A program made the translations under genes and the position numbers. Under the pieces are notes generated by a model. It did not search any database. It was not told the origin of the DNA and worked only from the letters and a program-made list of their open reading frames with translations. From Alphaproteobacteria bacterium (GTDB lineage Bacteria; Pseudomonadota; Alphaproteobacteria; CBDDJK01): DNA of 62,031 nucleotides. The DNA is taken from positions 1 to 62,031 of the forward strand of contig JBGCED010000007.1 in NCBI GenBank assembly GCA_045106055.1. Direction: 5' to 3'. Of this stretch, positions 9,353 through 52,999 are shown piece after piece (within the stretch, counting starts at the first letter, position 1; each line of letters starts with the position of its first letter).

Positions 9353-9386
9353 CCGATTTGCAGCATGATATGAATTGGCAAGATTT

Positions 9387-14760: not shown

Positions 14761-14823
14761 GCGGTCAAACATGACCTGTGGTTATTGCGGTCAAACATGA
14801 CCTTGTGGTTATTTGTGGTTATT
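14761..14823. repeat. tandem 26/27-bp direct repeat (2 full units plus a 10-bp partial) in the secD-secF spacer
   Basis: gcggtcaaacatgacc(t)tgtggttatt x2 followed by tgtggttatt; each unit contains the small palindrome GGTCA-tgtt-TGACC (read on the minus strand). Confidence 0.9.
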
Positions 14824-14828
14824 AACGA

Positions 14829-21983: not shown

Positions 21984-22021
21984 ATCCATCTTGCCAATCT
22001 TGCCAATGATGATCATTTAAA
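21984..22021. repeat. att-like repeat, right copy (B half identical, A half degenerate 13/17), overlapping the permease stop codon
   Basis: atccatcttgccaatcttgc + c + aatgatgatcatttaaa. On the minus strand this is the end of the permease gene plus the following 24 nt and an ATGGAT. Confidence 0.8.
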
Positions 22022-23062: not shown

Positions 23063-23096
23063 CTGTTTATGGCCTAAAAATATTTATCATCTTGTG

Positions 23097-26225: not shown

Positions 26226-27017
26226 ATGGTAAAAATCGCGACCTATAATGCAAATTCATTAAGAATCAGGCTGGATCATTTCATTCCATGGCTTGGCGAA
26301 TTTGAACCTGATATTGTTTTAATTCAAGAAACAAAAGTGACGGATGATTTATTTCCTGTGGATGCGTTTAAGCAAGCGGGGTATCATGCTGAATTTTATG
26401 GTCAAAAATCCTATAATGGGGTGGCGATTCTTTCCAAGCATAAAATGGAAGATGTGATCAAGGGCTTGCCAAATTTTAGCGAAGATGAAAATGCGCGGGT
26501 CATTGCCGCAAGCATCAATGGGGTGCGTTATTTCTCGCTTTACTGCCCAAATGGCAACCCCATTGGCGCGCCTGATGATTATAGCGAAAAATTCACCTAT
26601 AAGCTTGATTTTATGGCGCGGCTTTATCAATTTGTAAAAGATGTGCTGATCCCAAGTGAGCAGCCTTTTTTATTGGGCGGTGATTTTAACATTTGCCCGC
26701 TGGATATTGATTGCTATGATCCTGCTGGCTTTAAAAATGATGCTTTATGCCAGCCCCAATCGCGCCATTTCCATCAAAGCTTAATCCATTTGGGGCTTGC
26801 TGATGCGTGGCGCACCTTAAATCCCGCGCCTGCGGTTGGCTATAGCTATTGGGATTATCAAGGCGGGCGTTTTTTCAAAGATGATGGGCTGCGGATTGAT
26901 CATTTTTTGCTAAGCCCCGCGCTTAATGACCGTCTGCTTGATGCGGGCGTCGCAGTTACCTTGCGCCAGCAAGAACGCCCATCCGATCACACCCCCGTCT
27001 GGATCACCCTTAAATAG
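26226..27017 (+). CDS. xthA: exodeoxyribonuclease III
   Basis: 263 aa; NANSLR, LIQETK, GGDFNI and SDHTPV motifs of the EEP/ExoIII family. Confidence 0.9.
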   Translation: MVKIATYNANSLRIRLDHFIPWLGEFEPDIVLIQETKVTDDLFPVDAFKQAGYHAEFYGQKSYNGVAILSKHKMEDVIKGLPNFSEDENARVIAASINGVRYFSLYCPNGNPIGAPDDYSEKFTYKLDFMARLYQFVKDVLIPSEQPFLLGGDFNICPLDIDCYDPAGFKNDALCQPQSRHFHQSLIHLGLADAWRTLNPAPAVGYSYWDYQGGRFFKDDGLRIDHFLLSPALNDRLLDAGVAVTLRQQERPSDHTPVWITLK

Positions 27018-27041: not shown

Positions 27042-27737
27042 CTAAATGCGGGCTTTTTCAAATTCCGCCCATGCTGCTTCAAATGCGTTAAAATCAAAAT
27101 TTGAATTGCGGGCGGGATCAAGAATTAATTTTTCAGTATCTTGCATTTTTTTAATTGCAGCCTCCAGCTGATCGACAATATCGGGGGGGATCACAACCGC
27201 GCCATGACGATCGGCGTGAATTAAATCGCCTTGCTTAATGGTTAAGCCCATCACGGTTACAGGCTGATTGATGGTTTTAACATGGACAAAGCCATGGCTT
27301 GGGCCAATGCTGCCCGCGATGACAGGAAAATCTGGGGCCATATCGCCCAAATCGCGCATCACGCCATTGGTTAACGCGCCCGCCATCCCAAAGCCTTTAT
27401 GGATATTTGTATTTACTTCCCCCCAATAAGCGCCGATTGCATTTGGATAATCCATATCTTGAATCACTGCAACCGAAGGCTTTGCGCCCTCTGCCATTGC
27501 TTTATAATATGCCATGCGGCGGGCGCGGATGGTTGCCGCATCTTCGCTTGGGGGACTAAGCGCAGCAATTTGCGCGGTGACCGCATAACCAACCATCACG
27601 CCTGTTGGGTCGGATGCAAGCATGGTGCCGCGCGTAAAATCATTAAAGCCGCGCTTTCCTTGCGCAACCTCAATCGCATTACACACGGTTGGCGTATCCA
27701 CGCTTTGTAATAGGGCTAATAATGTGTCTTTCATCAT
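27042..27737 (-). CDS. RraA-family protein (4-hydroxy-4-methyl-2-oxoglutarate aldolase / oxaloacetate decarboxylase-like)
   Basis: 231 aa; VCNAIE..., GAYWGEVNT, GALTNGVMRD, DLIHADRHGAVVIP pattern of the RraA/HMG-aldolase fold. Confidence 0.75.
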   Translation of the reverse strand: MMKDTLLALLQSVDTPTVCNAIEVAQGKRGFNDFTRGTMLASDPTGVMVGYAVTAQIAALSPPSEDAATIRARRMAYYKAMAEGAKPSVAVIQDMDYPNAIGAYWGEVNTNIHKGFGMAGALTNGVMRDLGDMAPDFPVIAGSIGPSHGFVHVKTINQPVTVMGLTIKQGDLIHADRHGAVVIPPDIVDQLEAAIKKMQDTEKLILDPARNSNFDFNAFEAAWAEFEKARI

Positions 27738-28423
27738 GCCTCCAGCCAGTTAATAAGGGCTTTATTGGTTGCTTGCGCTTGTTCAAGTGTGGGCATATGC
27801 CCTGCATTTTCAATGATTTCCAAATGTGAATTTTCAAGCAAATCATGCATTAATTCATGGTAAGCAATGGGACAAAGCATATCATGTCGCCCGCAAAGCA
27901 CAAGCGCGGGTTTTTTAAAAGCGCGCAATGTGTCTTGCTGATCCAAGCGATCACGCAAAGCAACCGATTGCCGTAAAAATACGCCCGCACCCAGTCCTAA
28001 GCCCATATCCATACATAAATCAAGAATATTCTGTTTTTGGGGGCTTTCAACCAGATAATTTGGCTTTAATTCATCGCGCAAAATATCCCGTAATTTGCCA
28101 TTTTTAACCGCTTCCATTTGCGCAAATCGCCGCGCGGATATTTCGGCGCGCTCTGCTTGCGGATTCGTATCCATCAGCGCAATCCGCGCAATCCGATCAG
28201 GCGCAAGCCGCATCATTTCCATTGCCACAATCCCGCCCATGGATAATCCTGCAAGCGCAAAGATGGGCGGCGCGTCCGCCAAAATGCTGTGGGCGATTGC
28301 GGTCATATTATCATATGCGCCAATATCGCGCACTTGAATTTCATGGGATGTAATCGCAGCGATTTGCGGCGCAAATAACCGCGCATCACACATCATACCA
28401 GGCAAAAAAATCAGCGGGATCAT
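27734..28423 (-). CDS. alpha/beta-fold hydrolase
   Basis: 229 aa; nucleophile elbow GLSMGG and C-terminal His (NAGHMP); 4-nt overlaps with both neighbours. Confidence 0.8.
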   Translation of the reverse strand: MIPLIFLPGMMCDARLFAPQIAAITSHEIQVRDIGAYDNMTAIAHSILADAPPIFALAGLSMGGIVAMEMMRLAPDRIARIALMDTNPQAERAEISARRFAQMEAVKNGKLRDILRDELKPNYLVESPQKQNILDLCMDMGLGLGAGVFLRQSVALRDRLDQQDTLRAFKKPALVLCGRHDMLCPIAYHELMHDLLENSHLEIIENAGHMPTLEQAQATNKALINWLEA

Positions 28424-29544
28424 TGAACCAAGCTTGCACCTTCTGCCAGGGATTTTAACTTGGCATAGGCAATATCAGGATCAACCGCGCCAAAGCCCGC
28501 AAAAGTGCCAAAGCCGCAATCTGACCCTGCAATCACGCGATCCTTGCCCACAATATCCACAAAACGCTGTATGCGCTGTGCAACAAGCTTTGGATGTTCC
28601 ACAAAATTGGTGGTCGTATCCACAACCCCAGGGATTAAAATCTTATGATCTGGAATATCGGCTGCCCGTTCTTGAAAAACCTCCCATTCATGCCCATGGC
28701 GCGGATTGGAAGTTTCAAATAATATCTTGGCTGGCTTTACCGACATTAACACATCAAACATTTTTGCCATTGGAATATCGCAGACATGGGGACCTTCATA
28801 ATTGCCCCAGCAAATATGCAAGCGCACCTTATCGGCAGGAATATCGCGCAGCGCATGATTTAGGGCTTCAACATGGCTTTGCGCAATCTTTAAAAATTCA
28901 TCATCCTGCAATTCATTAAACAGCATATGCCGACTTAGGGCAAGATCGGGGCAATCCAGCTGCAAATCAAGCCCTGCAGCGATAATGGTTTCATATTCTG
29001 CTTTCATCGCATCGGCAAGCGCCGCCAAATAGGCTTCACGCGATGAATAATATGAATTTTGTAAGAATAATGAAATCACGCCAGGCGATGCCGCATTCAT
29101 AAAGCCTTTATTTACCTTATGTTCTGCCATGGCCGCTTTAAGATTGGCAATGTCTTTTTCAAGCTCGCCTTGTCCTTTTGATGTAACTTCCCCCACGCAC
29201 ATGGGACGCGCATATTGCGGGGTGCCGCCATCATTTGCCAGCCGCTTTAAAAAGCTTGGAAATAATTTAAGATCGGCGGGGGGATTGCGCGGACTATCGC
29301 CGTCAAAGCCTGTATAGCGATCCTTGACATAGGTTGCATAGCTGATCTTGGAAGTTTCCCCATCGGATACAATATCAACCCCCGCTTCCACCTGTTGGCG
29401 CACGGTTTCCAGTACGGCGCGGGTCATGGATTGATCAAATTCTGCTTGCTCATAGGGTTTATGATGTTCGCGCGCAAAGATAAAATCAACGGTTTCTTGG
29501 GTGCGCGGCAATGATCCGACATGGGTGGTTTTAATGTGTTTCAT
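28420..29544 (-). CDS. cobalamin-independent methionine synthase C-terminal-domain-like protein (MetE-II / Zn methyltransferase fold)
   Basis: 374 aa (half the length of true MetE); THVGSLPR N-terminus; candidate Zn ligands in HICWGN and SDCGFG. Confidence 0.75.
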   Translation of the reverse strand: MKHIKTTHVGSLPRTQETVDFIFAREHHKPYEQAEFDQSMTRAVLETVRQQVEAGVDIVSDGETSKISYATYVKDRYTGFDGDSPRNPPADLKLFPSFLKRLANDGGTPQYARPMCVGEVTSKGQGELEKDIANLKAAMAEHKVNKGFMNAASPGVISLFLQNSYYSSREAYLAALADAMKAEYETIIAAGLDLQLDCPDLALSRHMLFNELQDDEFLKIAQSHVEALNHALRDIPADKVRLHICWGNYEGPHVCDIPMAKMFDVLMSVKPAKILFETSNPRHGHEWEVFQERAADIPDHKILIPGVVDTTTNFVEHPKLVAQRIQRFVDIVGKDRVIAGSDCGFGTFAGFGAVDPDIAYAKLKSLAEGASLVQ

Positions 29545-29561
29545 AATGATTCCTTATATGA

Positions 29562-30527
29562 TTATTTGCTGGTTAATCCTGCTTGATCTTTGGTGCGGGT
29601 AATGCGGTAAAGGGCTGCCTGTCCCATCATTGAGGGGGAAAGCTGATAAGGGATATTTTCAGGCATGCTCATCGTATCGCCTTTGGCTAGGGTTATATGA
29701 TTATCTTGCCCCCATTTAACCAGCCAATGCCCCTTTACGGGCATTAACACGCAGGGTTCTGGATGCTGGCTTGACGCATTGCCAGATGATGCGCGGGTGA
29801 TAAAGTCAATTTCAAAGCCTGGGCGATCTTTTAATAGACCCTTTGCGCCAATCACTTTGACGGGCTGGTGATCGGCAAGCGCAACCATATCCCAATAGCG
29901 CGCAACATGGTTTGGAATGACTTCAGCCGTTGTTGGCTCGCCTCGCTTTGCCAATTCTGTTTCCGTCATCACTGGCATGGGGCTTATGCCATCTGGCAAG
30001 GATTCCCCCTTATTTATATCATAAAGCCTGCCCGTTTCCGCAAGGATCAAGCCATGCTGTTTGGCTTCTTCAATTACTTGCGGCGCCCACATGACACCGC
30101 CCCCTGCATCATCGCCGCCCAGCACCGCCATAATCATGCCATAATCCGATCCGATATTTTCAAATCCGCGAAAAATGCCTGTGGGAATGTTAAAAATATC
30201 GCCCGCTTCCAGCACCACTTCGCCCGCATTCCCCCAGCGTCCCCAAAAGAACCGCCAGCGACCCTTTAGCACAAAAAACACTTCGGCGGTGCGGTGATCA
30301 TGCAGCGAATTGCGACATCTTGGCGGCTGACCCGCTGCACCAATGTTAAAGCCATGCGGGATATTGATATGGACATGCTGATCAGGGCTTTCAGATACGC
30401 CGCCACCAATGATCGTAAAATTTTCTTTTTGATCCGATCCTGGTGTATGCGTATCAATAAAGGCGGTCTTGCACGGTTTTAACGCACCATAACGAACGAT
30501 CCGCTGTTCCATATCCTGCAACATCAT
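29562..30527 (-). CDS. bicupin-domain protein
   Basis: Two cupin barrels (HDHRTAEVFFVLKGRW...GDIFNIP and HPEPCVLMPVKGHW...GDTMSMP). The start at 30527 overlaps the upstream stop by 1 nt (TAATG). Confidence 0.65.
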   Translation of the reverse strand: MMLQDMEQRIVRYGALKPCKTAFIDTHTPGSDQKENFTIIGGGVSESPDQHVHINIPHGFNIGAAGQPPRCRNSLHDHRTAEVFFVLKGRWRFFWGRWGNAGEVVLEAGDIFNIPTGIFRGFENIGSDYGMIMAVLGGDDAGGGVMWAPQVIEEAKQHGLILAETGRLYDINKGESLPDGISPMPVMTETELAKRGEPTTAEVIPNHVARYWDMVALADHQPVKVIGAKGLLKDRPGFEIDFITRASSGNASSQHPEPCVLMPVKGHWLVKWGQDNHITLAKGDTMSMPENIPYQLSPSMMGQAALYRITRTKDQAGLTSK

Positions 30528-31528
30528 TAAATATCCCCGCTTTGCATTAGGATTTGCTTCCAAATCGCAACCTCGTCATAAAGTGCGGTTTCGCGGCGGA
30601 TTGTCGCCTCCCCGCTTTCGCCATTGGTTATAAATGGACCATATTCTGCATGGCACATCCCCATAATATGCACTTTTGCGCCTGTGGGTCTGCCAAATGC
30701 CCCAAGCCCATCATGCACACCGTCAAGCGACCATCTTATCGCCGCGCGGGGGGGAAGCATATCGCCCTCCATGCCAATTTGATGGTGAATTTTAAACATT
30801 GCATTTGGAAAGGATGATCGCAAGCCCAGCCAAAAATCTTCGACTGATTCCCATGATAATCCCGCAACCCCGCCAGCATAATGGGCTATCACCGCGCGAT
30901 CATAATCATGCTTGATGCACTCAAATTCCTTATTCATCATTTTTTGTAAAGTCGCAGCATATTTCACGCCCCATATATGATCATTGCCGCTTCCGTGATA
31001 GCCCCCATCCACATCTTGATCGGGGGTAAAGGGTTTTGATGCGGTTTCAACCCCGCCTTCAGATCGGATTAATTCGCGCGCAAATTCACGCGGATGCCCG
31101 CCAAGCTGGCGCACGATTGCGCCATAATCCCGCACCAGCCATTCATCAAAGATCACATCATCCTTGGCAGCGCAATCGGCAATTACCCTTGCGGTGAATT
31201 TTTTGCCTGTGGCTTTACCAAATAGCCCATCATGGGTATGGGTTGCGGTTGTGATCAAACGATGAGACGATAAAAACCCCGTATCCGCATCGCCTGACCA
31301 GATCACATCTTCGCCAAAAAGCTGGCGATCGCGAAATTCATAAATTGTTCCCATGGTGGATGCAATCACGGCTTGATTGCCGCGCTGAATGCCCATTGGT
31401 GATCTTACGGGAATATTGGGGGCATAATAATGATTTAGCGTTCCCACCCCGCGATCTTCCCAAATTTCCTTGGTAATGCCGATAATGTAATCTGGAAAAT
31501 CCTTCCAGCGATTTGAAAAGCCTTTCAT
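30527..31528 (-). CDS. tandem SnoaL/NTF2-like (ester-cyclase-like) protein, paralog 1
   Basis: 333 aa, two NTF2-like halves (ITKEIWEDRGVG...DEWLVRD and ...ALYDEVAIWKQI); fold assignment made by eye. Confidence 0.55.
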   Translation of the reverse strand: MKGFSNRWKDFPDYIIGITKEIWEDRGVGTLNHYYAPNIPVRSPMGIQRGNQAVIASTMGTIYEFRDRQLFGEDVIWSGDADTGFLSSHRLITTATHTHDGLFGKATGKKFTARVIADCAAKDDVIFDEWLVRDYGAIVRQLGGHPREFARELIRSEGGVETASKPFTPDQDVDGGYHGSGNDHIWGVKYAATLQKMMNKEFECIKHDYDRAVIAHYAGGVAGLSWESVEDFWLGLRSSFPNAMFKIHHQIGMEGDMLPPRAAIRWSLDGVHDGLGAFGRPTGAKVHIMGMCHAEYGPFITNGESGEATIRRETALYDEVAIWKQILMQSGDI

Positions 31529-31532
31529 AATT

Positions 31533-32543
31533 TTATGCTCCTTTTAAGCTGCGGGTTGAGCCGCGAATAATCAGCGGTCCATCAATTTCTATGGTTTGAA
31601 TGGGGCATTCAGGATCTTGTATATTGGCAAGCAAAGTGTCAATCGTTGCATCCACCATGCGGTTAACGGGCTGCCTTACCGTGGTTAGATCATAAGCGGC
31701 CCAGCTTGCCATTGGCACATCATCATAGCCAACCACCGATATATCTTGCGGAACGCGAACACCCAGCCCTTGGCGCAATATATCCAGCACTGCAAATGCC
31801 ATATGATCATTTGCCACAAAAATAGCATCGGGCTTGGTTTGACGCTGCATTAATATCTGCGTTGCCTCGGCTGCAATGTTGCGGTTAAACATGCCGTCAA
31901 TAATGTCAATCGGGGCTTGCCCATGTTCTTTTAAGCCATCGATAAAGCCCTGCAAGCGATCGCGGCCTGTTGATGATCCTTTCCAGCCCGCAATATGGGC
32001 AATGCGGTGATGCCCGCTTTTGACCAGAAAATTTGCAACCTTGCGTCCCCCCTCCACATTGGCGGAAGTGACCGATGAATGTCCAGACCTTGGCTGCGCG
32101 CGGTTGAACATGACAACGGGAATCCCTGATTTGGCGCAGCGCTGGGTTAAATTAGACGATATAGACACAGAAGCAGTAATGATGCCATCCACTTGATAAT
32201 CAAGCAATTCGGCAACGACATCCTCCACCCGTTCCTGTTCATTTTCTGCCATAAACACAAGAATATGATAGCCCCTTTTTTGCAGCGCATTTGAAAGCCG
32301 TTCCAGCGCAACAGGGTAAAATTGATTTTCCAAATAAGACACGACAAGCCCAATGATGCGCGTTTTGCCTGTAATCATTGCGCGCGCCAGTGAATTTGGG
32401 CGGTAACCCAGCCTGTTTGCGGCATCATGCACCTTGGCAATGGTTGCCTTGGATGCGGATGCACCAGAAAACACACGGCTGACCGCCGATTGGCTGACCC
32501 CTGCATGGCGGGCAACTTCTTGTGAGGTTACCTTGATATTCAT
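31533..32543 (-). CDS. LacI-family transcriptional repressor
   Basis: N-terminal HTH VTSQEVARHAGVSQSAVSRVFSG plus periplasmic-binding-protein-like effector domain. Confidence 0.9.
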   Translation of the reverse strand: MNIKVTSQEVARHAGVSQSAVSRVFSGASASKATIAKVHDAANRLGYRPNSLARAMITGKTRIIGLVVSYLENQFYPVALERLSNALQKRGYHILVFMAENEQERVEDVVAELLDYQVDGIITASVSISSNLTQRCAKSGIPVVMFNRAQPRSGHSSVTSANVEGGRKVANFLVKSGHHRIAHIAGWKGSSTGRDRLQGFIDGLKEHGQAPIDIIDGMFNRNIAAEATQILMQRQTKPDAIFVANDHMAFAVLDILRQGLGVRVPQDISVVGYDDVPMASWAAYDLTTVRQPVNRMVDATIDTLLANIQDPECPIQTIEIDGPLIIRGSTRSLKGA

Positions 32544-32559
32544 CTAGCCCGCGCGTCCA

Positions 32560-33333
32560 TTATTCTGCCGTCCATCCGCCATCAATCATCAAGGAAGTTC
32601 CCGTCACCAACGAAGCTGCATCGCTGCTTAGATAAACCGCCGCGCCCATAATATCTTCCACCTTGCCAACCCGCCCCAATTTGATTTTATCTTCAATCCA
32701 TGCGCGCCGCTGCGGATCCGCAAAAGTGCTTGCGGTTAATTCGGTTAGAATAAAAGTGGGACAGATCGTATTGATCCGAATGCCATGCTTGCCCCATTCA
32801 ATCGCCATGGCTTTGGTAAAGCCCTCAACCGCGTGCTTGGTTGCGCAATAAACCGCGCGATCAATCCCGCCAACATGCGCCATTTGGCTTGAAATATTAA
32901 TCAGGCTGCCCGATTTTCCAGCTGCGATTAAGTTTGATGCAACCGCTTGCGTTAGAAAAAATGCCCCTTTTAGATTAAGATCGCTAACCGCGTCAAAATC
33001 AGTTTCTTGTGCATCAAGGGCTGCGCTATGGCGCGCCATCCCCGCTGAATTGATTAAAACATCAAAGGGATCTGCGGCGTTAATCGCTTGCTTTGTTGCC
33101 TGAATGTCGCTTACATCCAGCTTGATTATATCCGCCGTCATGCCCGCATGATTAATTTCAGCCGCCAAGGCTTCAAGCTTATTCACGCTGCGCGCGGCAA
33201 GCGTGACAGATGCCCCTGCTTCAGCTAAGGCAACTGCGCACGCAGCCCCAATGCCAGAGGATGCGCCTGTGACCAAAGCGCGGCGACCATCAAGGCGAAA
33301 AGAAGGGGTAACGGGCAGCGTCATGGCGTTCAT
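32560..33333 (-). CDS. short-chain dehydrogenase/reductase
   Basis: TGASSGIGAA cofactor motif, NSAG, catalytic YCATKHAV. Confidence 0.9.
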   Translation of the reverse strand: MNAMTLPVTPSFRLDGRRALVTGASSGIGAACAVALAEAGASVTLAARSVNKLEALAAEINHAGMTADIIKLDVSDIQATKQAINAADPFDVLINSAGMARHSAALDAQETDFDAVSDLNLKGAFFLTQAVASNLIAAGKSGSLINISSQMAHVGGIDRAVYCATKHAVEGFTKAMAIEWGKHGIRINTICPTFILTELTASTFADPQRRAWIEDKIKLGRVGKVEDIMGAAVYLSSDAASLVTGTSLMIDGGWTAE

Positions 33334-34391
33334 TCCTTTATCATTAATCCAGATGGAATGGATAGCGGATGCAGGCTGCGCATTTTGTTAAATTCATGCA
33401 AGCGCGCAAACACATCCACCCCAATTTGGGCATAAAGATCAAGCAGATCAACCAGCACCCAATTCTCGCGAATAAGCCCATCTTCAAGCCGCCAAAAATC
33501 AAGGCTGCGCAATAAAACTTCTTTGCCCGCAGGGGCAATCCCCATCCAGCCATCATGGTTTAGGGTCAGGCGCATATTGGGCCAGCCCGTCTCGCAGACA
33601 TAATCCCCCTCGCCAATCCAATTCGACATTAAATCGCCCATCGCATCCAATTTACGATCTGGCATGGCGCGCAAAAACGGAATTTGATGCCAGTTGCGAA
33701 AGCCAGATATGCCGCGACATGCGCCAATCCCCGCTGGCCCGTACCAGTTAAAATGCGGATGCCAAAATTTCTCAAGCTCCATAATGGCAGGATCAGGATT
33801 ATTGGGATAACGACATAAGGCGGTTAGCATATCAATCACATGGTTCATAGCATGATTGCCATTATCTGAAACGCCCCCATCACCCACATTCAGCCCGTCT
33901 TGGCTTAGGGGCGCAGGGGTGCATAAATAAGCGCCAAGCTGCGGCGCCATTGGCCATGCTTTTGCTTGCATCATCATTTCGGGAATATCCCAAATCGCTT
34001 GCATTTGGGTCACCTTGCCCGCATCCAATTTAAAAAATTCATGGTAGCGCATATGCGCCAGCTGCCCTGTGGGGGGAATGTTTAAAAAAGGCGCAGTGAA
34101 TGTTCCCATATAATTGCCCATACAGCCAACCCAATCTTGACCTTCTTTGGTTGTTCCTGCCATCACAATCATATCACGCCGCTCAAGATCGGGCAGCGCA
34201 GATAATAAGGGGGTGATGCAATGTTCCCAATAGGAATCTGCCCCCATTAAATCCCCAAAAGGATGACATAGATGAAGCATGGCATCTGGTGCAAAAAGCG
34301 CATGCACGGAATCGCGCCACGCCGCTTTATCTGCACCGATGGCGGCGCGCCGATAAGGTTCAATTTGTGCTTTTAATGCGGATGGATTCAT
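33330..34391 (-). CDS. tandem SnoaL/NTF2-like protein, paralog 2
   Basis: Start chosen at ATG 34391 (ATGA overlap with the upstream stop). Shares PFLNIPPTG..., WYGPAGIG... and ENWVLVDLL blocks with paralog 3. Confidence 0.6.
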
Positions 34392-35716
34392 TGTGAAGCC
34401 GTGCCATAGGGTGCCGCAGTGCCATAAGCAACATCTTTGCCGCCATAGCGGCGCACGCGAATATTGCATTGTTCAGCATGACCGACAAAGCCTTCCAACA
34501 TACATAGTCTTGATCCATATTCACCGATCAGCGTTGCGGCTTCATCGCTTTCAATGCGTTGATAGCTATGGGTTTTTAAAAATTTACCAACCCATAGCCC
34601 GCCTGTATAACGCCCCGCCTTTTTGGTGGGCAAAGTGTGATTCGTGCCGATGACCTTATCGCCATTTGAAACATTGGTGCGGGCCCCCAAAAATAATGCG
34701 CCAAAGGAATGCATATGATCCAAAAACCATTGATCGCGATCCGTCATAATCTGCACATGTTCAAATGCTTTTTCATTGGCAACAGCCAGCATTTCATCAT
34801 AAGCATCACATAAAATAACCTCGCCATAATCGCGCCAGCTTACAGATGCGGTCTCTGCGGTTGGCAGAATTTTTAAAATGCGGTCAATTTCTGCCATCGT
34901 GTCATCTGCCAATTTGCGTGAATTGGTGATTAAAATCGCAGGGGAATTATAGCCATGTTCGGCTTGACCCAGCAAATCGGTTGCACATAATTCGCCGTCC
35001 ACCGTATCATCGGCAATGATCATGGTTTCGGTTGGTCCTGCAAATAAATCAATGCCAACCCGCCCATAAAGCTGGCGTTTTGCTTCTGCGACAAAGGCAT
35101 TGCCGGGCCCAACAAGCATATCAACTTGCTTGATCGTTTCCGTGCCAAGCGCCATTGCCCCCACCGCCTGTATGCCGCCCATCACATAAATTTCATGCGC
35201 CCCGCCCAAATGCATGGCAGCAACAATCGCAGGATGGGGCGCGCCATCAACAGGCGGTGCAGATGCAATAATGCGCGGCACGCCCGCAACATTTGCGGTT
35301 AGCACCGACATATGCGCCGATGCCACCATCGGGAATTTTCCCCCTGGGACATAGCACCCCACCGACTGCACGGGAATATTCTTATGCCCCAAAATCACGC
35401 CAGGCATGGTTTCAACCTCAATATCTTTCATGGATGCGCGCTGGGCTTGTGCAAAGGTGCGAATTTGCTTTTGCGCGAATTTTATATCTTCCATATCGCG
35501 GGTTGATAATTTTTGCATTGCTGCTTCAATCTGGGAATCGGTTAAACGAAAGCTTTGCGGTTCATAATCATCAAATTTTGCGCTTAATTCACGCACAGCC
35601 TTGTCCCCGCGTGCTTCAATATCTTGTAAGGTTGCTTCCACCACCGCGCGCACTTTTGCATCATCTTCGGCGCGTTCTGATTCGGGCTTTCCTGATTTAA
35701 GATAATTAATGGTCAT
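34388..35716 (-). CDS. histidinol-dehydrogenase-family NAD-dependent alcohol-to-acid dehydrogenase (non-his context; HpsN-like subgroup suspected)
   Basis: 442 aa; GQAEHG and GTNHTLPT Zn/active-site motifs, [25 protein letters not shown]. Confidence 0.8.
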
Positions 35717-35753
35717 TGATCTTTATCCTTAATGATGTTCTTTAAAAAAAGCT

Positions 35754-36797
35754 TTAATGCAATCTTATCCCTGTTTTTGCATCAAATAAATGGCAAATGC
35801 TGGCAGGAATTGCGCCCGATACGGCATCGCCGATTTTTGCGCGAAATGTTTTTGGGGCTTTGATTGATACAAGCGCGCCCCCAACCTTGACGGTAATCAT
35901 GGTTGCATCCCCCAACAATTCAAGTGAATAGATGGGTGCGCTAATTTCGCCATGATCGGCAAGGCTGGCATCTTCGGCTCTAAAGCCAAGGGTAACCGCG
36001 CCATCAGCGCCTTCTAGTCCGCTAATTTTAACTTTATCAGCCGTAAAAACGCCATTTTCAAGCACACCTTCTATTAAATTCATCGCAGGATTGCCAATAA
36101 AGCCCGCCACAAAGGCATTTGCAGGGCGGTCATAAATTTCGGTCGGGGTTGCAACTTGCTGCACAATTCCCTTATACATCACAACAACACGATCAGCTAG
36201 GGTCATGGCCTCAATTTGATCATGGGTCACATAAACGGTGGTGACCTTTAATTCATGCGATAGATTTTTAATTTGCGCGCGGGTTGATACCCGCAATTTT
36301 GCATCCAAATTGGATAGGGGTTCATCCATTAAAAACACATTTGGACGGCGAACAATCGCCCTTGCCAGCGCAACCCGCTGTCTTTGCCCGCCAGATAATT
36401 CAGCGGGTTTACGATGCAGAAAATCATTTAATTCCACCATGTCGGCGGCACGGCGCACCCGCTTATCCTGTTCATCTGGATCGGATTTTCGAACCTTTAG
36501 CGGGAAGCGGATATTTTCATAGACATTTAAATTTGGATAAAGCGCATAGCTTTGAAACACCATCGCAACATTGCGGTCCTTGGGATCAAGATCATTGACG
36601 CGTTGATTATCAATAAAAATATCCCCCTCGGACGCATCTTCAAGCCCCGCAATCATGCGCATGGTTGTGGTTTTACCGCAGCCCGAAGGACCAAGCAGCA
36701 CAAGAAATTCCTGATCCGCAATGGTAAGGTCAAATTTATGAACGCCAACAAAGTCGCCCCAGCGTTTGGAAAGATTGCGCAGTTGAATTTCGGCCAT
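35754..36797 (-). CDS. ABC transporter ATP-binding protein (MalK/UgpC type, CUT1)
   Basis: Walker A GPSGCGKTT, signature LSGGQRQRVA, Walker B FLMDEPLS, C-terminal regulatory TOBE-like domain; ATG 36797 is preceded by AAGGA. Confidence 0.9.
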   Translation of the reverse strand: MAEIQLRNLSKRWGDFVGVHKFDLTIADQEFLVLLGPSGCGKTTTMRMIAGLEDASEGDIFIDNQRVNDLDPKDRNVAMVFQSYALYPNLNVYENIRFPLKVRKSDPDEQDKRVRRAADMVELNDFLHRKPAELSGGQRQRVALARAIVRRPNVFLMDEPLSNLDAKLRVSTRAQIKNLSHELKVTTVYVTHDQIEAMTLADRVVVMYKGIVQQVATPTEIYDRPANAFVAGFIGNPAMNLIEGVLENGVFTADKVKISGLEGADGAVTLGFRAEDASLADHGEISAPIYSLELLGDATMITVKVGGALVSIKAPKTFRAKIGDAVSGAIPASICHLFDAKTGIRLH

Positions 36798-36841
36798 CAG
36801 ACATCCTTCAATGATTAACACACTTAGATATTTAATATGAT

Positions 36842-36859
36842 TTTTGCATACGATTGCAT
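36842..36859. promoter_or_regulatory. candidate LacI-family operator O1 (core TGCATACGATTGCA)
   Basis: 18-bp sequence ttttgcatacgattgcat is the exact reverse complement of 36973..36990. The core is a CG-centred pseudo-palindrome lying 45-62 nt upstream of the ATPase ATG. Confidence 0.55.
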
Positions 36860-36972
36860 TATTATTACCCTTGATTTATCCATAAATGCAAGTGTTTTTT
36901 ATGAATTTTCTGCCTGTTAAGCATGAATTTGTGACTTGCAAAATGCAAATTTATTGTGTAGAGATAATATCT

Positions 36973-36990
36973 ATGCAATCGTATGCAAAA
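36973..36990. promoter_or_regulatory. candidate LacI-family operator O2 (core TGCAATCGTATGCA)
   Basis: Exact inverted copy of O1, 78-95 nt upstream of the solute-binding-protein ATG. Confidence 0.55.
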
Positions 36991-37067
36991 CTTGCACCCC
37001 GATTTAATCAGGTTTATTAATTTCGTTAATAAATATATCAAAAAACAAAAGGTCTGGAGAATAAAGG

Positions 37068-38330
37068 ATGAAAAATTTAGCAAAAATAGGGTTCGCTTCC
37101 GCGATTGCGGTATTAAGCAGCGCTTCATTTTTGGGGGCGGGCAATCATGCAGCTGCTCAAATGGCAAATTGCGCCGTTGATACGGGGCAGGTCAGCATTG
37201 TTGGCAATGAATTTCCTGCAATTCATACGGTTGCAAATGGCGCAGCCAAATGCAAGGGATTGACGGTGACTTCCAATCTAACTTCTGAACATCAAACCAT
37301 TAATGTTCCTGGCATGAAAGGCAACCCTGCTGAATATTCATCGGCGATCATTGCAAATTCATCGGTTGTTGCGCTTATTAACGAGGATGTGATTCGCCCC
37401 CTAGATGATTTGGTTGCAAAATATGGCGCGGATATTCCCAAACACCGCCTGATTACGATTGATGGCAAAATCTATGCGGTTGCTTTTATGGCAAATGCGC
37501 AAACGCTTGCTTATCGCAAGGATGTGCTTGAAAAAATTGGGGCGGCAGTGCCAACCAGCTATGAAGAAATGCTTGATGCTGCGGAAAAAATCCGTGCAGC
37601 TGGGATCAGCCAATATCCCGTTGGTGGGGCTTATGCAGCGGGCTGGAACCTAGCCGAAGAATTTGTGAATATGTATATTGGTCATGGCGGGGATTTTTTC
37701 AAAGCAGGAACGGCTGAAGTTTCAGTGAATAATGCGCGCGGAATTGCTGCTTTGGAAGTGATGAAAGCGCTTACCGAATATATGAATCCAGATTTTCTAA
37801 CCCATGATTCAAATGCCACCAACGCCGAAATGGAAGCTGGCAATGTGATGCTGATGAATATGTGGGGATCACGCATGGGTGTGCTGATGGATGATGAAGG
37901 CGCAGCCCCCGAAGTTTATGAAAATATTGCGGTTGCAGGCCCAATGACGGTCGGCGGCGGTAATATTCCAGCAACCACCTTGTGGTGGGATGGCTGGACG
38001 GTTGCCAAAAACTTGTCAGATGAAGATGCTGCAGCAACCTTTGTTGCGCTAGCCCATGGTTCAAGCCCCGCAATTTTAAATGATGAAACCATGTCGCAAG
38101 CAGTATGGATGATTGATGGCTATGAACCAGCACCCGTCAATGATGGTGTGTTTGCCGCAATTAGCGCAAATGCAAAGCCTTATCCAATGCTGCCCTTTAT
38201 GGGATTGCTGCATACAGCGCTTGGCAATAATTTGGGTGATTTCTTGCAAGGCAAAGAAAGTGCAGCCCAAGCCCTATCAGATGTTGAGGCGGCTTATACC
38301 GCAGCAGCAACCGAAAAAGGCTTCCTGTAG
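37068..38330 (+). CDS. ABC transporter extracellular solute-binding protein (family 1, CUT1)
   Basis: 420 aa with signal peptide; general SBP_bac_1 pattern; heads the permease operon. Confidence 0.8.
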   Translation: MKNLAKIGFASAIAVLSSASFLGAGNHAAAQMANCAVDTGQVSIVGNEFPAIHTVANGAAKCKGLTVTSNLTSEHQTINVPGMKGNPAEYSSAIIANSSVVALINEDVIRPLDDLVAKYGADIPKHRLITIDGKIYAVAFMANAQTLAYRKDVLEKIGAAVPTSYEEMLDAAEKIRAAGISQYPVGGAYAAGWNLAEEFVNMYIGHGGDFFKAGTAEVSVNNARGIAALEVMKALTEYMNPDFLTHDSNATNAEMEAGNVMLMNMWGSRMGVLMDDEGAAPEVYENIAVAGPMTVGGGNIPATTLWWDGWTVAKNLSDEDAAATFVALAHGSSPAILNDETMSQAVWMIDGYEPAPVNDGVFAAISANAKPYPMLPFMGLLHTALGNNLGDFLQGKESAAQALSDVEAAYTAAATEKGFL

Positions 38331-38359
38331 GCTTTCTTTTAATCTTTAGTGACTTAAAA

Positions 38360-38393
38360 AGGGGCGGCATTTAAACCGCCGCCTCTTTTTCTT
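38360..38393 (+). terminator. intrinsic terminator/attenuator hairpin between the SBP and permease genes
   Basis: a-gg-GGCGGC-(9-nt loop)-GCCGCC-tct followed by a T-rich run tttttcttt. Confidence 0.55.
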
Positions 38394-38412
38394 TAAACAG
38401 GCATTTGCGATC

Positions 38413-39435
38413 ATGAAACATAAAACATTTTGTATGTTTGTGCTGCCATCTTCCTTGGCGATGATCTTTTTTATTTTTTTACCGCTGATTTCAATTGTCA
38501 TGCAATCCGTATATGTTCCCCATGAACAAGTGATTGTGACGGTTGAAAATTGCGGTCCCTTTGGCTGCACCGAATCAACGATCATCGATCAAGAAGCAAC
38601 TGCAAAGCTTGCCGAGGATAAGCCCTTTGGGCGTTTTGCGGGCGCAGCAACCTATCTTGATCGCGGGCATTTGGCAGTTGATGAGCTTAAAGCCGCATGG
38701 CAGGCAAAAAATGGCTGGCGCGAATTTGGCGCGCGAATGCTTAACCTTCCCTTTTATAATGCGCTGGCATTTACCTTAACCTATACTTTGATCGTTACCC
38801 CGCTTGTTATTATTCTTGGCTTTATGATTGCGGTTGCGGTAAATGGTGTGCTGCGCGCAATCAGAGGCCCGTTGATCTTTATGTCGCTGCTGCCAATGAT
38901 CATTACCCCGCTTGTTGGCGCGCTTATCCTATTTTGGATGGTGGATGCGCGCGGGGTGGTTGGGGCGACCTTGCAAATCATGGCGGGCGATCCGTCTTTG
39001 TCTATTAAAGCATCCACCCCGCTAATGTGGATCATGTTGATGGTATATGGCGTATGGCACGGCGCGCCTTTTGCCTTTATTGTGTATTATGCAGGGCTGC
39101 AAACCGTAAATACAGACACGATAGAAGCGGCGATGATTGATGGCGCAACCCGCTTGCAGCGCATTCGCTATGTCATTGTCCCCCATCTTGTGCCGCTAAC
39201 CACCTTTATTGCATTGATGCAGATTATGGATAATTTCAGGGTGTTTGAACCGATTGTAAGCTTTGCGGCTTCTGCGCATGCAACCTCGCTAAGCTGGGCG
39301 ATTTATAATGATCTTGGCGGGGAAACGCGGCAATTATCCTCGGCGGCGGCAACATCGGTTTTAACGGTTGCCTGTATTGTCATTCTGTTGATGCCTGTGC
39401 TGATTAGAACTTGGCGCGATTTTGGAAAGAAATAA
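38413..39435 (+). CDS. ABC transporter permease (CUT1, UgpA/MalF-like)
   Basis: Six or more TM segments; EAA-type loop EAAMIDGATRLQRIRYVIVP. Confidence 0.85.
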   Translation: MKHKTFCMFVLPSSLAMIFFIFLPLISIVMQSVYVPHEQVIVTVENCGPFGCTESTIIDQEATAKLAEDKPFGRFAGAATYLDRGHLAVDELKAAWQAKNGWREFGARMLNLPFYNALAFTLTYTLIVTPLVIILGFMIAVAVNGVLRAIRGPLIFMSLLPMIITPLVGALILFWMVDARGVVGATLQIMAGDPSLSIKASTPLMWIMLMVYGVWHGAPFAFIVYYAGLQTVNTDTIEAAMIDGATRLQRIRYVIVPHLVPLTTFIALMQIMDNFRVFEPIVSFAASAHATSLSWAIYNDLGGETRQLSSAAATSVLTVACIVILLMPVLIRTWRDFGKK

Positions 39436-39439
39436 ATCT

Positions 39440-40321
39440 ATGACCAATAAAGCACAGCAAAAACCCTATTATCTCAGCCTATTTATTTTGATGGTGCTTG
39501 GCTTTTGGATCATCCTGTCCGCAGGGCCTTTTTTATGGACTTTATGGGGATCATTTAAGGTTGAGGGCGATTTTTTCTCCAAGGCAGATTGGGCAGCTGC
39601 TTTAACAGGCGAATTGACGCAAGTTGAAACAGGCGGGCATTTTACAGGCGATGGCTATTATGGTGCTTGGATCAAAGAAGGCTTTTGGCGTGCCGCCCTA
39701 AATTCATCGATTGTCTGCGTATTTGTGGTGATGATTTCGCTAACCCTTGGCACGCTTGGCGGCTATGCCTTATCCCGATCCACCGAACGCTATGCGTTTT
39801 GGTTTTTAATCATCGCGCTTGTGTTTCGCGCATTGCCGCAAATCACACTGGTTTCTGGCTATTTGCCTGTATTTTTTAATTTGAATATGTGGGGGCATCT
39901 GCCCACCGCGATTGTGGTTCTAATTGCAATTAATCAGCCCTTTACCCTATGGATGCTGCATTCTTTCTTTAAAAATATTCCCAAAGACCTTGATGAAAGC
40001 GCAATGGTTGACGGCTGCAATCGCTTTCAAGCGTTCCGCCATGTCATTATCCCCGTCATGTGGCCAGGGGTGATCACAACGGGCTTATTTTCATTCTTGC
40101 TTGCCTATAATGATTTTGCGGTGACCGCGATGATCCTATCCAAGGAAAATCAAACCATGATCCCTAAAATTGCGGGCTTCCTTGGCACAACCCAAACCAA
40201 AGGCAATGTGATGTTTGCGGTTGCTGCGGTTGTGTCGGTGACTGCGCCCTTATTTATTATGGTGATGGTGTTCCAGCGCCAAATCGTATCTGGATTAACG
40301 GCGGGCGCGATTAAAGGATGA
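39440..40321 (+). CDS. ABC transporter permease (CUT1, UgpE/MalG-like)
   Basis: EAA-type loop ESAMVDGCNRFQAFRHVIIP; ATG 39440 lies just after the upstream stop. Confidence 0.85.
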   Translation: MTNKAQQKPYYLSLFILMVLGFWIILSAGPFLWTLWGSFKVEGDFFSKADWAAALTGELTQVETGGHFTGDGYYGAWIKEGFWRAALNSSIVCVFVVMISLTLGTLGGYALSRSTERYAFWFLIIALVFRALPQITLVSGYLPVFFNLNMWGHLPTAIVVLIAINQPFTLWMLHSFFKNIPKDLDESAMVDGCNRFQAFRHVIIPVMWPGVITTGLFSFLLAYNDFAVTAMILSKENQTMIPKIAGFLGTTQTKGNVMFAVAAVVSVTAPLFIMVMVFQRQIVSGLTAGAIKG

Positions 40322-41304
40322 GCTTTCAAGCAGAAAAAGCCTTGGTGCGCGCTTATTATGATGCGCTTGCAGCCGCAACGCCAGATTCTGTTGATGCTGT
40401 TTTGGGCAAATATATCGCAGATCACTGGCTGTGGCGCGGGATGCACCCTTTTCACGAACAAATCGGCGCGCCAGCCGTGGCAAATGCGTTCTGGAAACCC
40501 TTTTTAAATGCCTTTCACACAGTACGCCGCCGCCAAGATGTGTTTATGGCTGGGGAAAATGAAATTGATGGGTTTCAATCGGTGTGGGTGGTTTCCATGG
40601 GGCATTTGATGGTGCTGTTTGATCGCCCTTTTTTAAACATTCCCCCCACCCGCAAATTAACGATGATCCGCTATGCTGAATTTAACAAGATAGAGCATGG
40701 TAAAATTACAGAAACTGCCTTTTTTTGTGATTTATTGCATTTGATGCGCCAAGCGGGGTTAAATCCGCTGCCACTACAAACGGGGCAGCATCTGATCCAG
40801 CCAGGGCCTGCCACCCATGATGGGCTGCTATTTGATGATGCGGATCGGAATGCGGGCAACGCCACCCTTGCCTTAATCAACAGGATGATTAATGATATTA
40901 ATGATCATGGCGCGCTTACCCCGCAGCAAGAATTATCCCGCACATGGCATGATGATATGATCTGGTGGGGACCAGAGGGGATCGGTGCGACCTATGGCAT
41001 TGATCGCTATATTGAACAGCATCAAAAACCCTTTCGCACCCAAATAGCGGATCGCAAATTTAACGGGCATATTTGCAGGCTGGCTGAGGGGGATTTTGGC
41101 GGCTTTTTTGGCTGGCCCAATTTAACGGTAACCCCAATCGGCGATTATATGGGGCTTCCAGCCACCCACCAACCAGCCGATATGCGGGTTGTGGATATTT
41201 ATCGACGCGATGGCGATAAGCTTGCGGAAAATTGGATATTCATCGATATGCTGCATTTTCTAAACCAGCAAGGAATCGATATTTTAAAAAAGATAGTGCC
41301 TTGA
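40318..41304 (+). CDS. tandem SnoaL/NTF2-like protein, paralog 3
   Basis: ATGA overlap with the permease stop; clear block similarity to paralog 2 ([44 protein letters not shown]). Confidence 0.6.
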   Translation: MSFQAEKALVRAYYDALAAATPDSVDAVLGKYIADHWLWRGMHPFHEQIGAPAVANAFWKPFLNAFHTVRRRQDVFMAGENEIDGFQSVWVVSMGHLMVLFDRPFLNIPPTRKLTMIRYAEFNKIEHGKITETAFFCDLLHLMRQAGLNPLPLQTGQHLIQPGPATHDGLLFDDADRNAGNATLALINRMINDINDHGALTPQQELSRTWHDDMIWWGPEGIGATYGIDRYIEQHQKPFRTQIADRKFNGHICRLAEGDFGGFFGWPNLTVTPIGDYMGLPATHQPADMRVVDIYRRDGDKLAENWIFIDMLHFLNQQGIDILKKIVP

Positions 41305-41420
41305 AATTAAGGGCGCGCAGATAAGTTAAAAAAAACATTGCCAGCATGATAAGAATCCTTTAGCTTAATAATTCTAAATGTATCTTTTAAACCAACAAGA
41401 TATTGCAAAGGAAAGAAAAA

Positions 41421-52923: not shown

Positions 52924-52999
52924 GGCGGATTAGCTCAGGGGTTAGAGCAGAGGAATCATAATCCTTGTGTCCGGGGTTCAAATCCCTGATCCGCCACCA
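52924..52999 (+). tRNA. tRNA with CAT anticodon (elongator Met, or Ile2 if lysidine-modified), CCA encoded
   Basis: Manual cloverleaf: acceptor GGCGGAT/ATCCGCC, D arm GCTC-AGGGGTTA-GAGC, anticodon arm GAGGA-ATCATAA-TCCTT, variable GTGTC, T arm CGGGG-TTCAAAT-CCCTG, then ACCA. The short D loop resembles Ile2-type tRNAs. Confidence 0.85.

Follow-up and report, generated by a model that had tools for sequence, protein, structure and literature searches.

HpsN dehydrogenases, relatives of histidinol dehydrogenase (HisD), are defined by the motif G-R-Y-A/S-H, the final histidine of which (His126) binds the sulfonate group of the substrate; they also oxidise the aldehyde sulfolactaldehyde (PMC11382572). 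Homologues of core-MetE are found in roseobacters, where no role has been demonstrated for them, and what they do in aerobic bacteria of the sea has yet to be settled (PMC12478193). Relatives of both occur together in a cluster of 14 genes at positions 27042-41304 of the alphaproteobacterial contig JBGCED010000007.1, the whole stretch of 62,031 nucleotides that was analysed here (the window). Besides a HisD-like dehydrogenase and a short MetE-like protein, the cluster encodes an ABC importer, a LacI-family repressor, a bicupin, an RraA-like protein, an alpha/beta hydrolase, a short-chain dehydrogenase/reductase (SDR) and three proteins with tandem NTF2/SnoaL domains, referred to as NTF2_a, NTF2_b and NTF2_c.

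We read the cluster as a mobile, LacI-repressed regulon that would import a small metabolite of algae, hydroxylated, probably carrying a methyl group and either sugar-like or carbocyclic in nature, and break it down oxidatively to pyruvate and a short (di)carboxylic acid. The chances that this reading holds as a whole are, in our judgement, about even. The gene set, its co-conservation, the operator and the non-orthologous exchanges between lineages were observed directly.

Related loci were collected from species-representative genomes with a profile of NTF2_b homologues, and were compared by tblastn with all window proteins and by all-against-all clustering of open reading frames (ORFs). Many of the 80 loci lie on truncated contigs, and full 10-kb flanks are available in 39. 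The LacI gene was found in 60 loci, NTF2_a in 59, and the HisD-like (57), bicupin (54), SDR (53), MetE-like (47), hydrolase (41) and RraA-like (32) genes follow. Within the full-flank set, 23 of the 39 loci carry the HisD-like, NTF2_a, bicupin and MetE-like genes together, and 30 carry at least three of the four; the joint conservation for which an earlier note on this DNA had proposed a neighbourhood check is thus borne out. NTF2_b is found without the other core genes in 5 of the 39. Gene order varies among lineages while the gene set persists. Neither xthA nor the TPR/GT9-like gene, which flank the cluster in the window, was found beside it in any of the 80 loci, and since these genes never travel with the cluster, the edges that the earlier note had drawn at them are right.

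Both the SDR and the hydrolase genes are lacking in some otherwise complete clusters, for instance those of Planktotalea (L005 and L071), and the hydrolase is also absent from the Sulfitobacter version. The two are dispensable, and the irreducible set therefore consists of the transporter, the HisD-like protein, NTF2_b, NTF2_a, the bicupin, the MetE-like protein and the aldolase. The same 14-gene layout is present on a metagenome contig encoding a bicupin protein identical to that of Planktomarina temperata RCA23 (AII88208.1), and the assembly collection lists a protein of precisely this sequence in 550 blocks. Close relatives are found in CHAB-I-5 strain SB2 and other pelagic roseobacters; carriers also include abundant coastal roseobacters, alga-associated Hyphomonadaceae, Gammaproteobacteria and Agarilytica. 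Among the cultured carriers are Planktomarina temperata RCA23, Yoonia litorea DSM 29433, Litoreibacter meonggei DSM 29466, Nioella spp. and Agarilytica rhodophyticola. The marker proteins of the cluster have thousands of metagenomic homologues.

The LacI-family repressor (31533-32543, minus strand) features an N-terminal helix-turn-helix (Pfam LacI HTH) and a periplasmic-binding-protein-like effector domain (Peripla_BP_3), and reached none of the NCBIfam equivalog cutoffs. A palindrome, TTGCATACGTTTGCAA / TGCATTCGTATGCA, is common to the divergent regions between the solute-binding protein (SBP) and ATPase genes of orthologous loci. Allowing up to one mismatch, TGCATWCGWATGCA has exactly 2 matches in the window, against 0.18 expected from the shuffled window, and both fall in the 270-nt region that separates the two divergent operons. 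These predicted operators, O1 (TGCATACGATTGCA, 36845-36858) and O2 (TGCAATCGTATGCA, 36974-36987), are located 48 nt upstream of the ATPase start and 81 nt upstream of the SBP start, respectively. Scanning the 80 loci with TGCANNCGNNTGCA revealed 75 sites in 48 loci; 74 of the 75 are within the cluster span, which accounts for 67% of the scanned bases. In related loci, sites are placed upstream of SBP, ATPase, NTF2, HisD-like, hydrolase and symporter genes. The palindrome has a central CG and lies at the predicted regulated promoters, and we infer that the LacI protein binds this conserved operator. Because the palindrome is confined to the cluster, the cluster is taken to be one LacI regulon. 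Co-occurrence, rearranged synteny and the conserved operator all agree with the earlier description of the locus as a LacI-controlled unit of uptake and catabolism.

The importer is composed of the SBP (37068-38330, plus strand; Pfam SBP_bac_1), two permeases (38413-39435 and 39422-40321, plus strand; both BPD_transp_1), the second of which starts with either TTG at 39422 or ATG at 39440, and a MalK/UgpC-type ATPase (35754-36797, minus strand; ABC_tran and OB_MalK) with a C-terminal regulatory domain, and is thus of the CUT1 type. The ATPase passes the UgpC subfamily model of NCBIfam with 434 bits. The SBP has only distant relatives in the PDB (at most 45 bits), which bind maltose, trehalose, sorbitol and sulfoquinovosyl-glycerol. 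CUT1 uptake is found in the Rhodobacterales and Hyphomicrobiales versions of the cluster; a sodium:solute symporter (SSF) takes the place of the ABC system in Hyphomonadaceae, Sphingomonadaceae, Arenicella and Agarilytica, accompanied in some by a TonB-dependent receptor. This exchange argues for a small solute.

The HisD-like protein (34388-35716, minus strand; Pfam Histidinol_dh, PF00815, 445 bits) scores 428 bits with the TIGR00069 domain model (cutoff 244). Its closest solved structures are two dehydrogenases of 2,3-dihydroxypropane-1-sulfonate (DHPS), the DHPS-3-dehydrogenases 8WWE (372 bits) and 8V35 (369 bits), at about 50% identity; true HisD structures give at most 263 bits. The zinc ligands (Q/H of QAEH, D of GD and the distal histidine) align, as do the Glu and His of the catalytic pair, the lysine of GDK and the residues equivalent to E318, H319 and D352 of CpHpsN. 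This full HisD/HpsN catalytic set is consistent with the four-electron oxidation of an alcohol to an acid suggested by the earlier note. The protein differs from HisD in the G-S-A-P-L motif and reaches 256 bits with the full-length equivalog PRK13770, the cutoff of which is 647. It does not carry the HpsN motif either, the corresponding residues being G-K-F-P-M. The motif position was found in 57 of 58 cluster HisD-like ORFs and reads K-F/Y-P-M/L in 56 and R-Y-P-L in one; the equivalent of His126 is Met or Leu, and the sulfonate-binding histidine is present in none of the 57. An exact-sequence lookup of the protein returned no match. In locus L080, a second HisD-like gene, with the motif G-R-Y-P-L, is found at the end of the cluster.

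Judged by its sequence, the HisD-like protein is a third subfamily beside HisD and HpsN, since the HpsN-defining histidine is missing in all 57 orthologues. Its substrate probably has the shape X-CH2-C(OH)-CH2OH, with a different, possibly anionic, group acting as the Zn ligand. Among the genes recurring in the 80 loci, SuyAB, Xsc, CuyA and oxygenase-type desulfonation genes were all absent. The sulfonated diol that the earlier note had named among possible substrates therefore finds no support in either the motif or the gene content, and sulfonate catabolism was rejected on both grounds.

The MetE-like protein (28420-29544, minus strand; Pfam Meth_synt_2), a putative short, or core, Zn alkyltransferase, is a single barrel of 374 residues. 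It reaches no NCBIfam cutoff for a methionine-synthase equivalog, the best being PRK04326 (97.7 bits; cutoff 406). In an alignment of 16 sequences, the Zn ligands (HICWGN, E277 and SDCG) are invariant or nearly so, and the Zn motifs align to HxC and DCG of 1YPX, 3RPD and 1U1H. The homocysteine-site motifs THVGSLPR, DGE and QLD, the MetE counterparts of which are TTxIGSFPQ, HGE and IDEP, are invariant in the same 16 sequences. A PDB sequence search matched only two uncharacterised structural-genomics entries. Because the host encodes CobT, a cobalamin-synthesis gene, the MetE-like protein is probably not a housekeeping methionine synthase, and no riboswitch is present anywhere in the window. 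Given the Zn and homocysteine motifs, the lack of a riboswitch and the cobalamin genes, a catabolic alkyl or methyl transfer involving homocysteine would be the most economical reading; the possible methyl transfer listed in the earlier note is consistent with the intact motifs. In at least six roseobacter loci (L021, at 14767-15393, L035, L041, L054, L076 and L077), a class I methyltransferase of 200-210 residues, dependent on S-adenosylmethionine (SAM), is encoded between the bicupin and the MetE-like gene; it is absent in the window, where the two genes are 17 nt apart.

The bicupin (29562-30527, minus strand; Pfam Cupin_2) shares the motif HxHx3E with all orthologues (54/54). In the window protein, the motif occurs in the N-terminal barrel only, and the motif-2 histidine, the fourth metal ligand, is replaced by Arg. 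A PDB sequence search gave no significant match. The AlphaFold2 (AF2) model, which has a pLDDT (predicted local distance difference test) of 71, has as its best Foldseek match in the PDB a fungal quercetin 2,3-dioxygenase (E 5e-15, template-modelling (TM) score ~0.48, identity 12-16%), followed by salicylate/gentisate dioxygenases and oxalate decarboxylase. From this model, we propose that the bicupin may be an O2-dependent dioxygenase cleaving C-C bonds.

NTF2_b (33330-34391, minus strand; two Pfam SnoaL domains) is the most conserved gene of the cluster, with 65-75% identity across Alpha- and Gammaproteobacteria. Its 5404 homologues are all named only 'ester cyclase'. NTF2_b and NTF2_c (40318-41304, plus strand; two SnoaL domains) are paralogues, 33% identical over their full length in BLASTP, and no similarity was detectable by BLASTP between either protein and NTF2_a (30527-31528, minus strand; SnoaL and SnoaL_2). 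NTF2_a, for which we propose the role of a cofactor-free enzyme, is tandemly duplicated in the roseobacter clusters L002, L054, L070, L076 and L080. PDB sequence matches of NTF2_b are confined to single-domain polyketide cyclases. Its AF2 model is unreliable after residue 145; the N-terminal domain resembles SnoaL-type cyclases, and the Foldseek matches are generic. The proteins have the fold of SnoaL polyketide cyclases and lack their biosynthetic context, as no polyketide synthase genes are present and the setting is that of a transporter and a catabolic regulon. The name 'ester cyclase' is a family label only.

NTF2_b always adjoins an aldolase or HisD-like gene, in the orders RraA>NTF2_b, HpcH>NTF2_b or HisD>NTF2_b, which suggests that NTF2_b and the aldolase are a functional pair, possibly older than the cluster. 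Loci of note here are L004, L006, L018, L019 and L082. NTF2_b also stands alone, in unrelated contexts, in five loci. The neighbours of stand-alone NTF2_b genes are heterogeneous, save for the HpcH aldolase of L019 (10001-11816), where the two genes are found without any other cluster gene.

The RraA-like protein (27042-27737, minus strand), a putative class II pyruvate aldolase/oxaloacetate decarboxylase, scores 67.7 bits with the Pfam RraA-like model (cutoff 24.5) and 30-33 bits with LigK models (cutoffs 179-304). The R-D motif NGVMRD is kept in 27 of the 32 orthologues, and a PDB sequence search matched only an uncharacterised protein. Depending on the lineage, the aldolase slot is filled by the RraA-like protein or by an HpcH/HpaI protein, closest to GarL, HpaI and RhmA. 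The two types have unrelated folds and the same chemistry, both being pyruvate-forming class II aldolases. This exchange strengthens the case for a terminal aldol cleavage releasing pyruvate, which was already part of the earlier note, and is the best support for that step.

The SDR (32560-33333, minus strand; Pfam adh_short_C2, 188 bits) is a classical, KduD/GolD-like member of its family and scores 221 bits with the KduD model, the cutoff of which is 339. The alpha/beta hydrolase (27734-28423, minus strand; Pfam Abhydrolase_1/6), an esterase or lactonase, contains the nucleophile motif GLSMG; its best NCBIfam resemblances, PcaD enol-lactonase and BioH methyl esterase, are both far below cutoff. 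In Hyphomonadaceae-type clusters, an Amidohydro_2 enzyme, closest to L-fucono-1,5-lactonase, adjoins the aldolase. The secondary-alcohol oxidation and the ester or lactone hydrolysis of the earlier note would be accessory steps rather than core ones, since both genes are dispensable in some lineages.

In the proposed scheme, uptake would proceed through the CUT1 ABC system here and through a sodium:solute symporter, sometimes with a TonB receptor, elsewhere. The tandem NTF2/SnoaL proteins might carry out cofactor-free trimming, dehydration or isomerisation, and the HpsN-like enzyme would convert a CH2OH next to a C-OH into a carboxylate at the expense of two NAD+. The core-MetE-like Zn enzyme would pass a methyl group of the substrate to homocysteine. 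The quercetinase-like bicupin would then use O2 to cleave a C-C bond of an ene-diol or diketone, optional SDR and esterase/lactonase activities (the alpha/beta hydrolase here, Amidohydro_2 elsewhere) would handle side groups, and the RraA-like aldolase, or HpcH in other lineages, would release pyruvate.

The leading candidate substrate, put forward with low confidence, is 4-deoxygadusol/gadusol, the C7-cyclitol core found in mycosporine-like amino acids (MAAs). On a correspondingly tentative view, which we consider improbable, the cluster would represent the first route by which marine sunscreens (gadusol, 4-deoxygadusol and MAAs) are catabolised. The candidate is suggested by chemical bookkeeping, in that one natural product fits every core enzyme. 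4-Deoxygadusol has the O-C-CH2-C(OH)-CH2OH arrangement of HisD/HpsN substrates, and its methoxy group, as part of a vinylogous methyl ester, could serve as the donor to a Zn-thiolate. Loss of the methyl group leads to a cyclic aci-reductone, the type of substrate used by cupin dioxygenases, and 4-carboxy-4-hydroxy-2-oxoadipate is the classical substrate of RraA-type aldolases.

On the sunscreen reading, the NTF2-fold enzymes would strip the amino-acid substituents and the HpsN-like dehydrogenase would make a ring carboxylate. The core-MetE-family enzyme would serve as a catabolic O-demethylase, making methionine directly from the methoxy group, and the bicupin as a cyclic aci-reductone dioxygenase yielding 4-carboxy-4-hydroxy-2-oxoadipate. 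In formulae, C8H12O5 would be oxidised to the acid C8H10O6 and demethylated to the aci-reductone C7H8O6, and addition of O2 would give C7H8O8, that is, 4-carboxy-4-hydroxy-2-oxoadipate, which would be split into pyruvate and oxaloacetate. The ecological setting fits, the cluster being carried by bacteria that live in the surface ocean or in association with algae. The literature searched describes no route for the breakdown of MAAs or gadusol, the sole lead on MAA catabolism being an old suggestion that Vibrio harveyi hydrolyses shinorine.

Several points weigh against the scheme. The whole of it is built on sequence and models, and the CUT1/LacI combination would equally fit an ordinary sugar derivative. 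MAAs are amino-acid conjugates, yet no aminotransferase or deaminase belongs to the core, an IlvA-like gene being present in one locus. The roles given to the three NTF2 proteins are guesses, the C-terminal model of NTF2_b being poor and its fold neighbours generic; the linkage of NTF2_b to the aldolase, and its occurrence with little or no cluster around it, are not explained by the scheme. The fold match of the bicupin is moderate (TM ~0.48), and some bicupins are isomerases or decarboxylases. A great distance separates the RraA-like protein from LigK (33 bits; cutoff 304), and a SAM methyltransferase beside the MetE-like gene is odd for a demethylating route.

The alternative that survives best, itself unlikely, is that an unusual sugar or sugar acid, be it methylated, deoxy or branched, is degraded without phosphorylation. 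The part of sugar 1-dehydrogenase would fall to the SDR, that of lactonase to the hydrolase or Amidohydro_2 enzyme, and that of an unrecognised dehydratase to an NTF2 protein or the cupin; the aldolase would yield pyruvate and an aldehyde, which the HisD-like enzyme would oxidise. Much of the periphery fits such a route: uptake by CUT1 under LacI, with SSF proteins related to sugar symporters elsewhere; an SDR resembling KduD, GolD and rhamnose dehydrogenases; the closeness of Amidohydro_2 to L-fucono-1,5-lactonase and of HpcH to GarL, HpaI and RhmA; and the oxidation of sulfolactaldehyde by HpsN (PMC11382572). However, the SDR and hydrolase on which the route depends are missing from otherwise complete clusters, dehydratases of the enolase-superfamily, IlvD/Edd and altronate types are not among the genes recurring in the 80 loci, and the MetE-like protein, the bicupin and the three NTF2 proteins are left without a role.

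Slightly more doubtful is a marine lower pathway of the gallate/syringate type, similar to protocatechuate 4,5-cleavage, for a methoxylated phenolic compound, with demethylation, ring cleavage by the bicupin, hydrolysis of a methyl ester or lactone, hydration and LigK-like aldol cleavage. The adjacency of the RraA-like aldolase and Amidohydro_2, the family of LigI and LigJ, in Hyphomonadaceae-type loci speaks for it, as do the PcaD-like hydrolase and the gentisate and salicylate dioxygenases among the fold neighbours of the bicupin. Sugar-type uptake and LacI would nonetheless be unusual for aromatic acids, scores with the LigK and PcaD equivalog models fall far short of cutoff, and the oxidation of an alcohol by the HisD-like enzyme has no place in such a pathway. 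Moreover, neither a LigAB/DesZ/GalA-type dioxygenase nor a LigM-type demethylase or ring hydroxylase was seen among the recurring genes.

We give a still lower probability to the catabolism of an onium (sulfonium or quaternary-ammonium) alcohol, in which the MetE-like protein would, like BHMT, demethylate the substrate to the benefit of homocysteine, with the cupin as a lyase. The homocysteine and Zn sites of the MetE-like protein are intact, onium methyls are chemically the easiest donors to a thiolate, and cupin lyases of dimethylsulfoniopropionate (DMSP) exist. The CUT1/LacI/SSF set, however, differs from betaine and DMSP systems of the BCCT or ProU type, and the genes recurring in the 80 loci include none for handling dimethylsulfide, methylamine or the amines left after demethylation. 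The homarine hom operon, the described marine N-methyl pathway that was compared, is unrelated and was rejected because it employs different enzymes.

A sulfonate route, for DHPS, cysteinolate or a compound derived from sulfoquinovose, is very unlikely. The DHPS-3-dehydrogenases are the best solved relatives of the HisD-like protein, and the GDK lysine, which contacts the sulfonate, is kept. Against this stand the Met/Leu found in place of His126 in all 57 orthologues with the motif, the similarity of the SBP to the sulfoquinovosyl-glycerol binder at only 35 bits, and the lack, among genes recurring in the 80 loci, of a sulfolyase, sulfoacetaldehyde acetyltransferase, cysteate lyase, sulfonate oxygenase or sulfite exporter. 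That unrelated operons came to lie side by side by chance, an idea in favour of which there is nothing beyond the absence of a known pathway, has a negligible probability and was rejected, as the genes co-occur across orders and classes despite rearranged order and share an operator restricted to the cluster.

None of the searches assigned the cluster to a pathway. With NCBIfam, no specific equivalog was obtained for any of the 14 proteins, and only the generic hisD domain and UgpC subfamily models pass; none of the solved structures searched assigns a pathway, and literature related to PDB entries 8YSB and 8KAA gave nothing relevant. No paper combining these enzyme families was found in the full-text literature, subscription-only titles being outside the search. 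The statement of the earlier note that the enzyme set matches no nameable pathway therefore stands with respect to curated models, solved structures and the papers searched.

The cluster is organised in two divergent operons of 14 ORFs in total, flanked by xthA (26226-27017) and the TPR/GT9-like gene (41403-42932). Pfam supports the family call of each ORF, and the genes, order, coordinates and families listed in the earlier note agree with Pfam and the ORF list. Its start-stop overlaps were also recovered, as five ATGA junctions and one TAATG junction; the remaining gaps on the minus strand are 4, 16, 17 and 37 nt. The largest gap of 37 nt given there holds for the minus-strand operon but not for the plus-strand operon, in which the SBP and permease genes are separated by an 82-nt spacer (38331-38412). 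The length of the spacer is accounted for by a terminator-like GC-rich hairpin followed by a T run (38363-38380, plus strand). Partial terminators that raise the SBP:permease expression ratio typically have a hairpin of this kind. NTF2_c is joined to the transporter genes by an ATGA overlap and is predicted to be co-transcribed with them. Three longest-ORF starts are over-extended, the likely starts being 34391 for NTF2_b, 30527 for the bicupin and the ATG at 36797 for the ATPase. Scans of promoter and terminator consensus sequences performed no better than on shuffled sequences.

The host is apparently a marine member of the Alphaproteobacteria from a poorly sampled group. The best named relatives of its CobT (9375-11255) are Rhodospirillales-like, at only 50-61% identity, while proteins of the cluster show 75-86% identity to their orthologues in Rhodobacterales, and the G+C content of the cluster (0.48-0.51) is slightly higher than that of the flanks (0.43-0.46). 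For these reasons, the cluster was probably acquired horizontally, and its designation as an island in the earlier note is upheld. The rest of the window is ordinary chromosome, with CobT, a chemoreceptor, a DinG-like helicase, DacA, PmbA and tRNA-Met. A second, unrelated sugar-type ABC system is encoded upstream of the cluster (22013-24629), and its ATPase, a protein with two ABC domains, most resembles a putative vitamin B6/ribose-type transporter ATPase. The tRNA-Met (CAT; 52924-52999) is the only RNA family detected, all other Rfam families, riboswitches included, being below threshold in the window.

Some cluster versions carry additional genes. The Arenicella locus L004 (11849-15292) features an IlvA-like threonine/serine dehydratase, an amino-acid kinase and a D-2-hydroxyacid dehydrogenase. 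An aldehyde dehydrogenase is present in the sphingomonad version (L010, 7852-9438), and a homologous ORF in that of Hellea (L056, 14668-17458 for the Hellea set), which also has a four-carbon acid-sugar kinase (SBD_N/NBD_C).

The regulon is so widespread and conserved that it points to a common algal metabolite with an undescribed bacterial sink. Were the pathway solved, models of phytoplankton-bacteria exchange would gain a flux of carbon and possibly one of methyl groups or methionine. Its solution would also provide functions for the tandem SnoaL 'ester cyclases', the HpsN-like dehydrogenase that lacks the histidine and the core-MetE homologue, and the operator/repressor pair could be used as a biosensor for the imported compound.

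The building blocks and the overall logic of the cluster, a LacI-controlled importer with a catabolic operon, are familiar; the combination of enzymes is very widespread, matches no described pathway and includes three orphan subfamilies. As in the DHPS clusters (8V35, 8WWE), a HisD-family Zn/NAD enzyme is present, and the catalytic E-H pair, Zn ligands and GDK lysine of HpsN, which oxidises X-CH2-CH(OH)-CH2OH by four electrons, are all found in the cluster enzyme. Unlike DHPS clusters, the locus lacks the His126 motif (G-K-F/Y-P-M/L instead) and a sulfolyase, relies on ABC or SSF uptake rather than on tripartite ATP-independent periplasmic (TRAP) or major facilitator superfamily (MFS) transporters, and encodes three NTF2 proteins, a bicupin and a MetE-like protein in addition. 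The MetE-like protein retains the motifs by which the MetE family binds homocysteine, and also its Zn site (His, Cys, Glu, Cys). It differs from MetE in size (374 residues against about 750 in the two-barrel enzyme), in having no N-terminal folate domain, in its scores below the equivalog cutoffs and in belonging to a catabolic regulon under LacI, where the riboswitch by which metE is often controlled is absent.

Cleavage of a keto-ene-diol by O2 is the chemistry of quercetinase and of acireductone-type cupin dioxygenases. The window bicupin resembles quercetin 2,3-dioxygenase in its modelled fold and in its one predicted metal site, located in the N-terminal barrel, and departs from it in sequence (12-16% identity), in fold similarity (TM ~0.48) and in the replacement of the motif-2 histidine by Arg. 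The non-phosphorylative pathways of L-rhamnose and L-fucose have counterparts in the SDR, the fuconolactonase-like Amidohydro_2 and the GarL/HpaI/RhmA-like aldolase of some cluster versions. In contrast to those pathways, which use an enolase-type dehydratase, the cluster has no dehydratase, its SDR and lactonase are dispensable, and its core is made up of the HisD-like, MetE-like, bicupin and NTF2 genes. The protocatechuate 4,5-cleavage and gallate/syringate pathways (LigI, LigJ, LigK) differ from the cluster in that equivalog scores are far below cutoff, a quercetinase-like bicupin takes the place of LigAB/GalA as the proposed cleaving enzyme, the cluster has a sugar-type regulator and transporter, and the distribution is marine and pelagic. 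Common to both are an RraA-fold protein, in the cluster a putative pyruvate aldolase, an enzyme of the Amidohydro_2 family and a hydrolase of esterase or lactonase type, and the end products of protocatechuate 4,5-cleavage, pyruvate and oxaloacetate, are those of the scheme proposed here.

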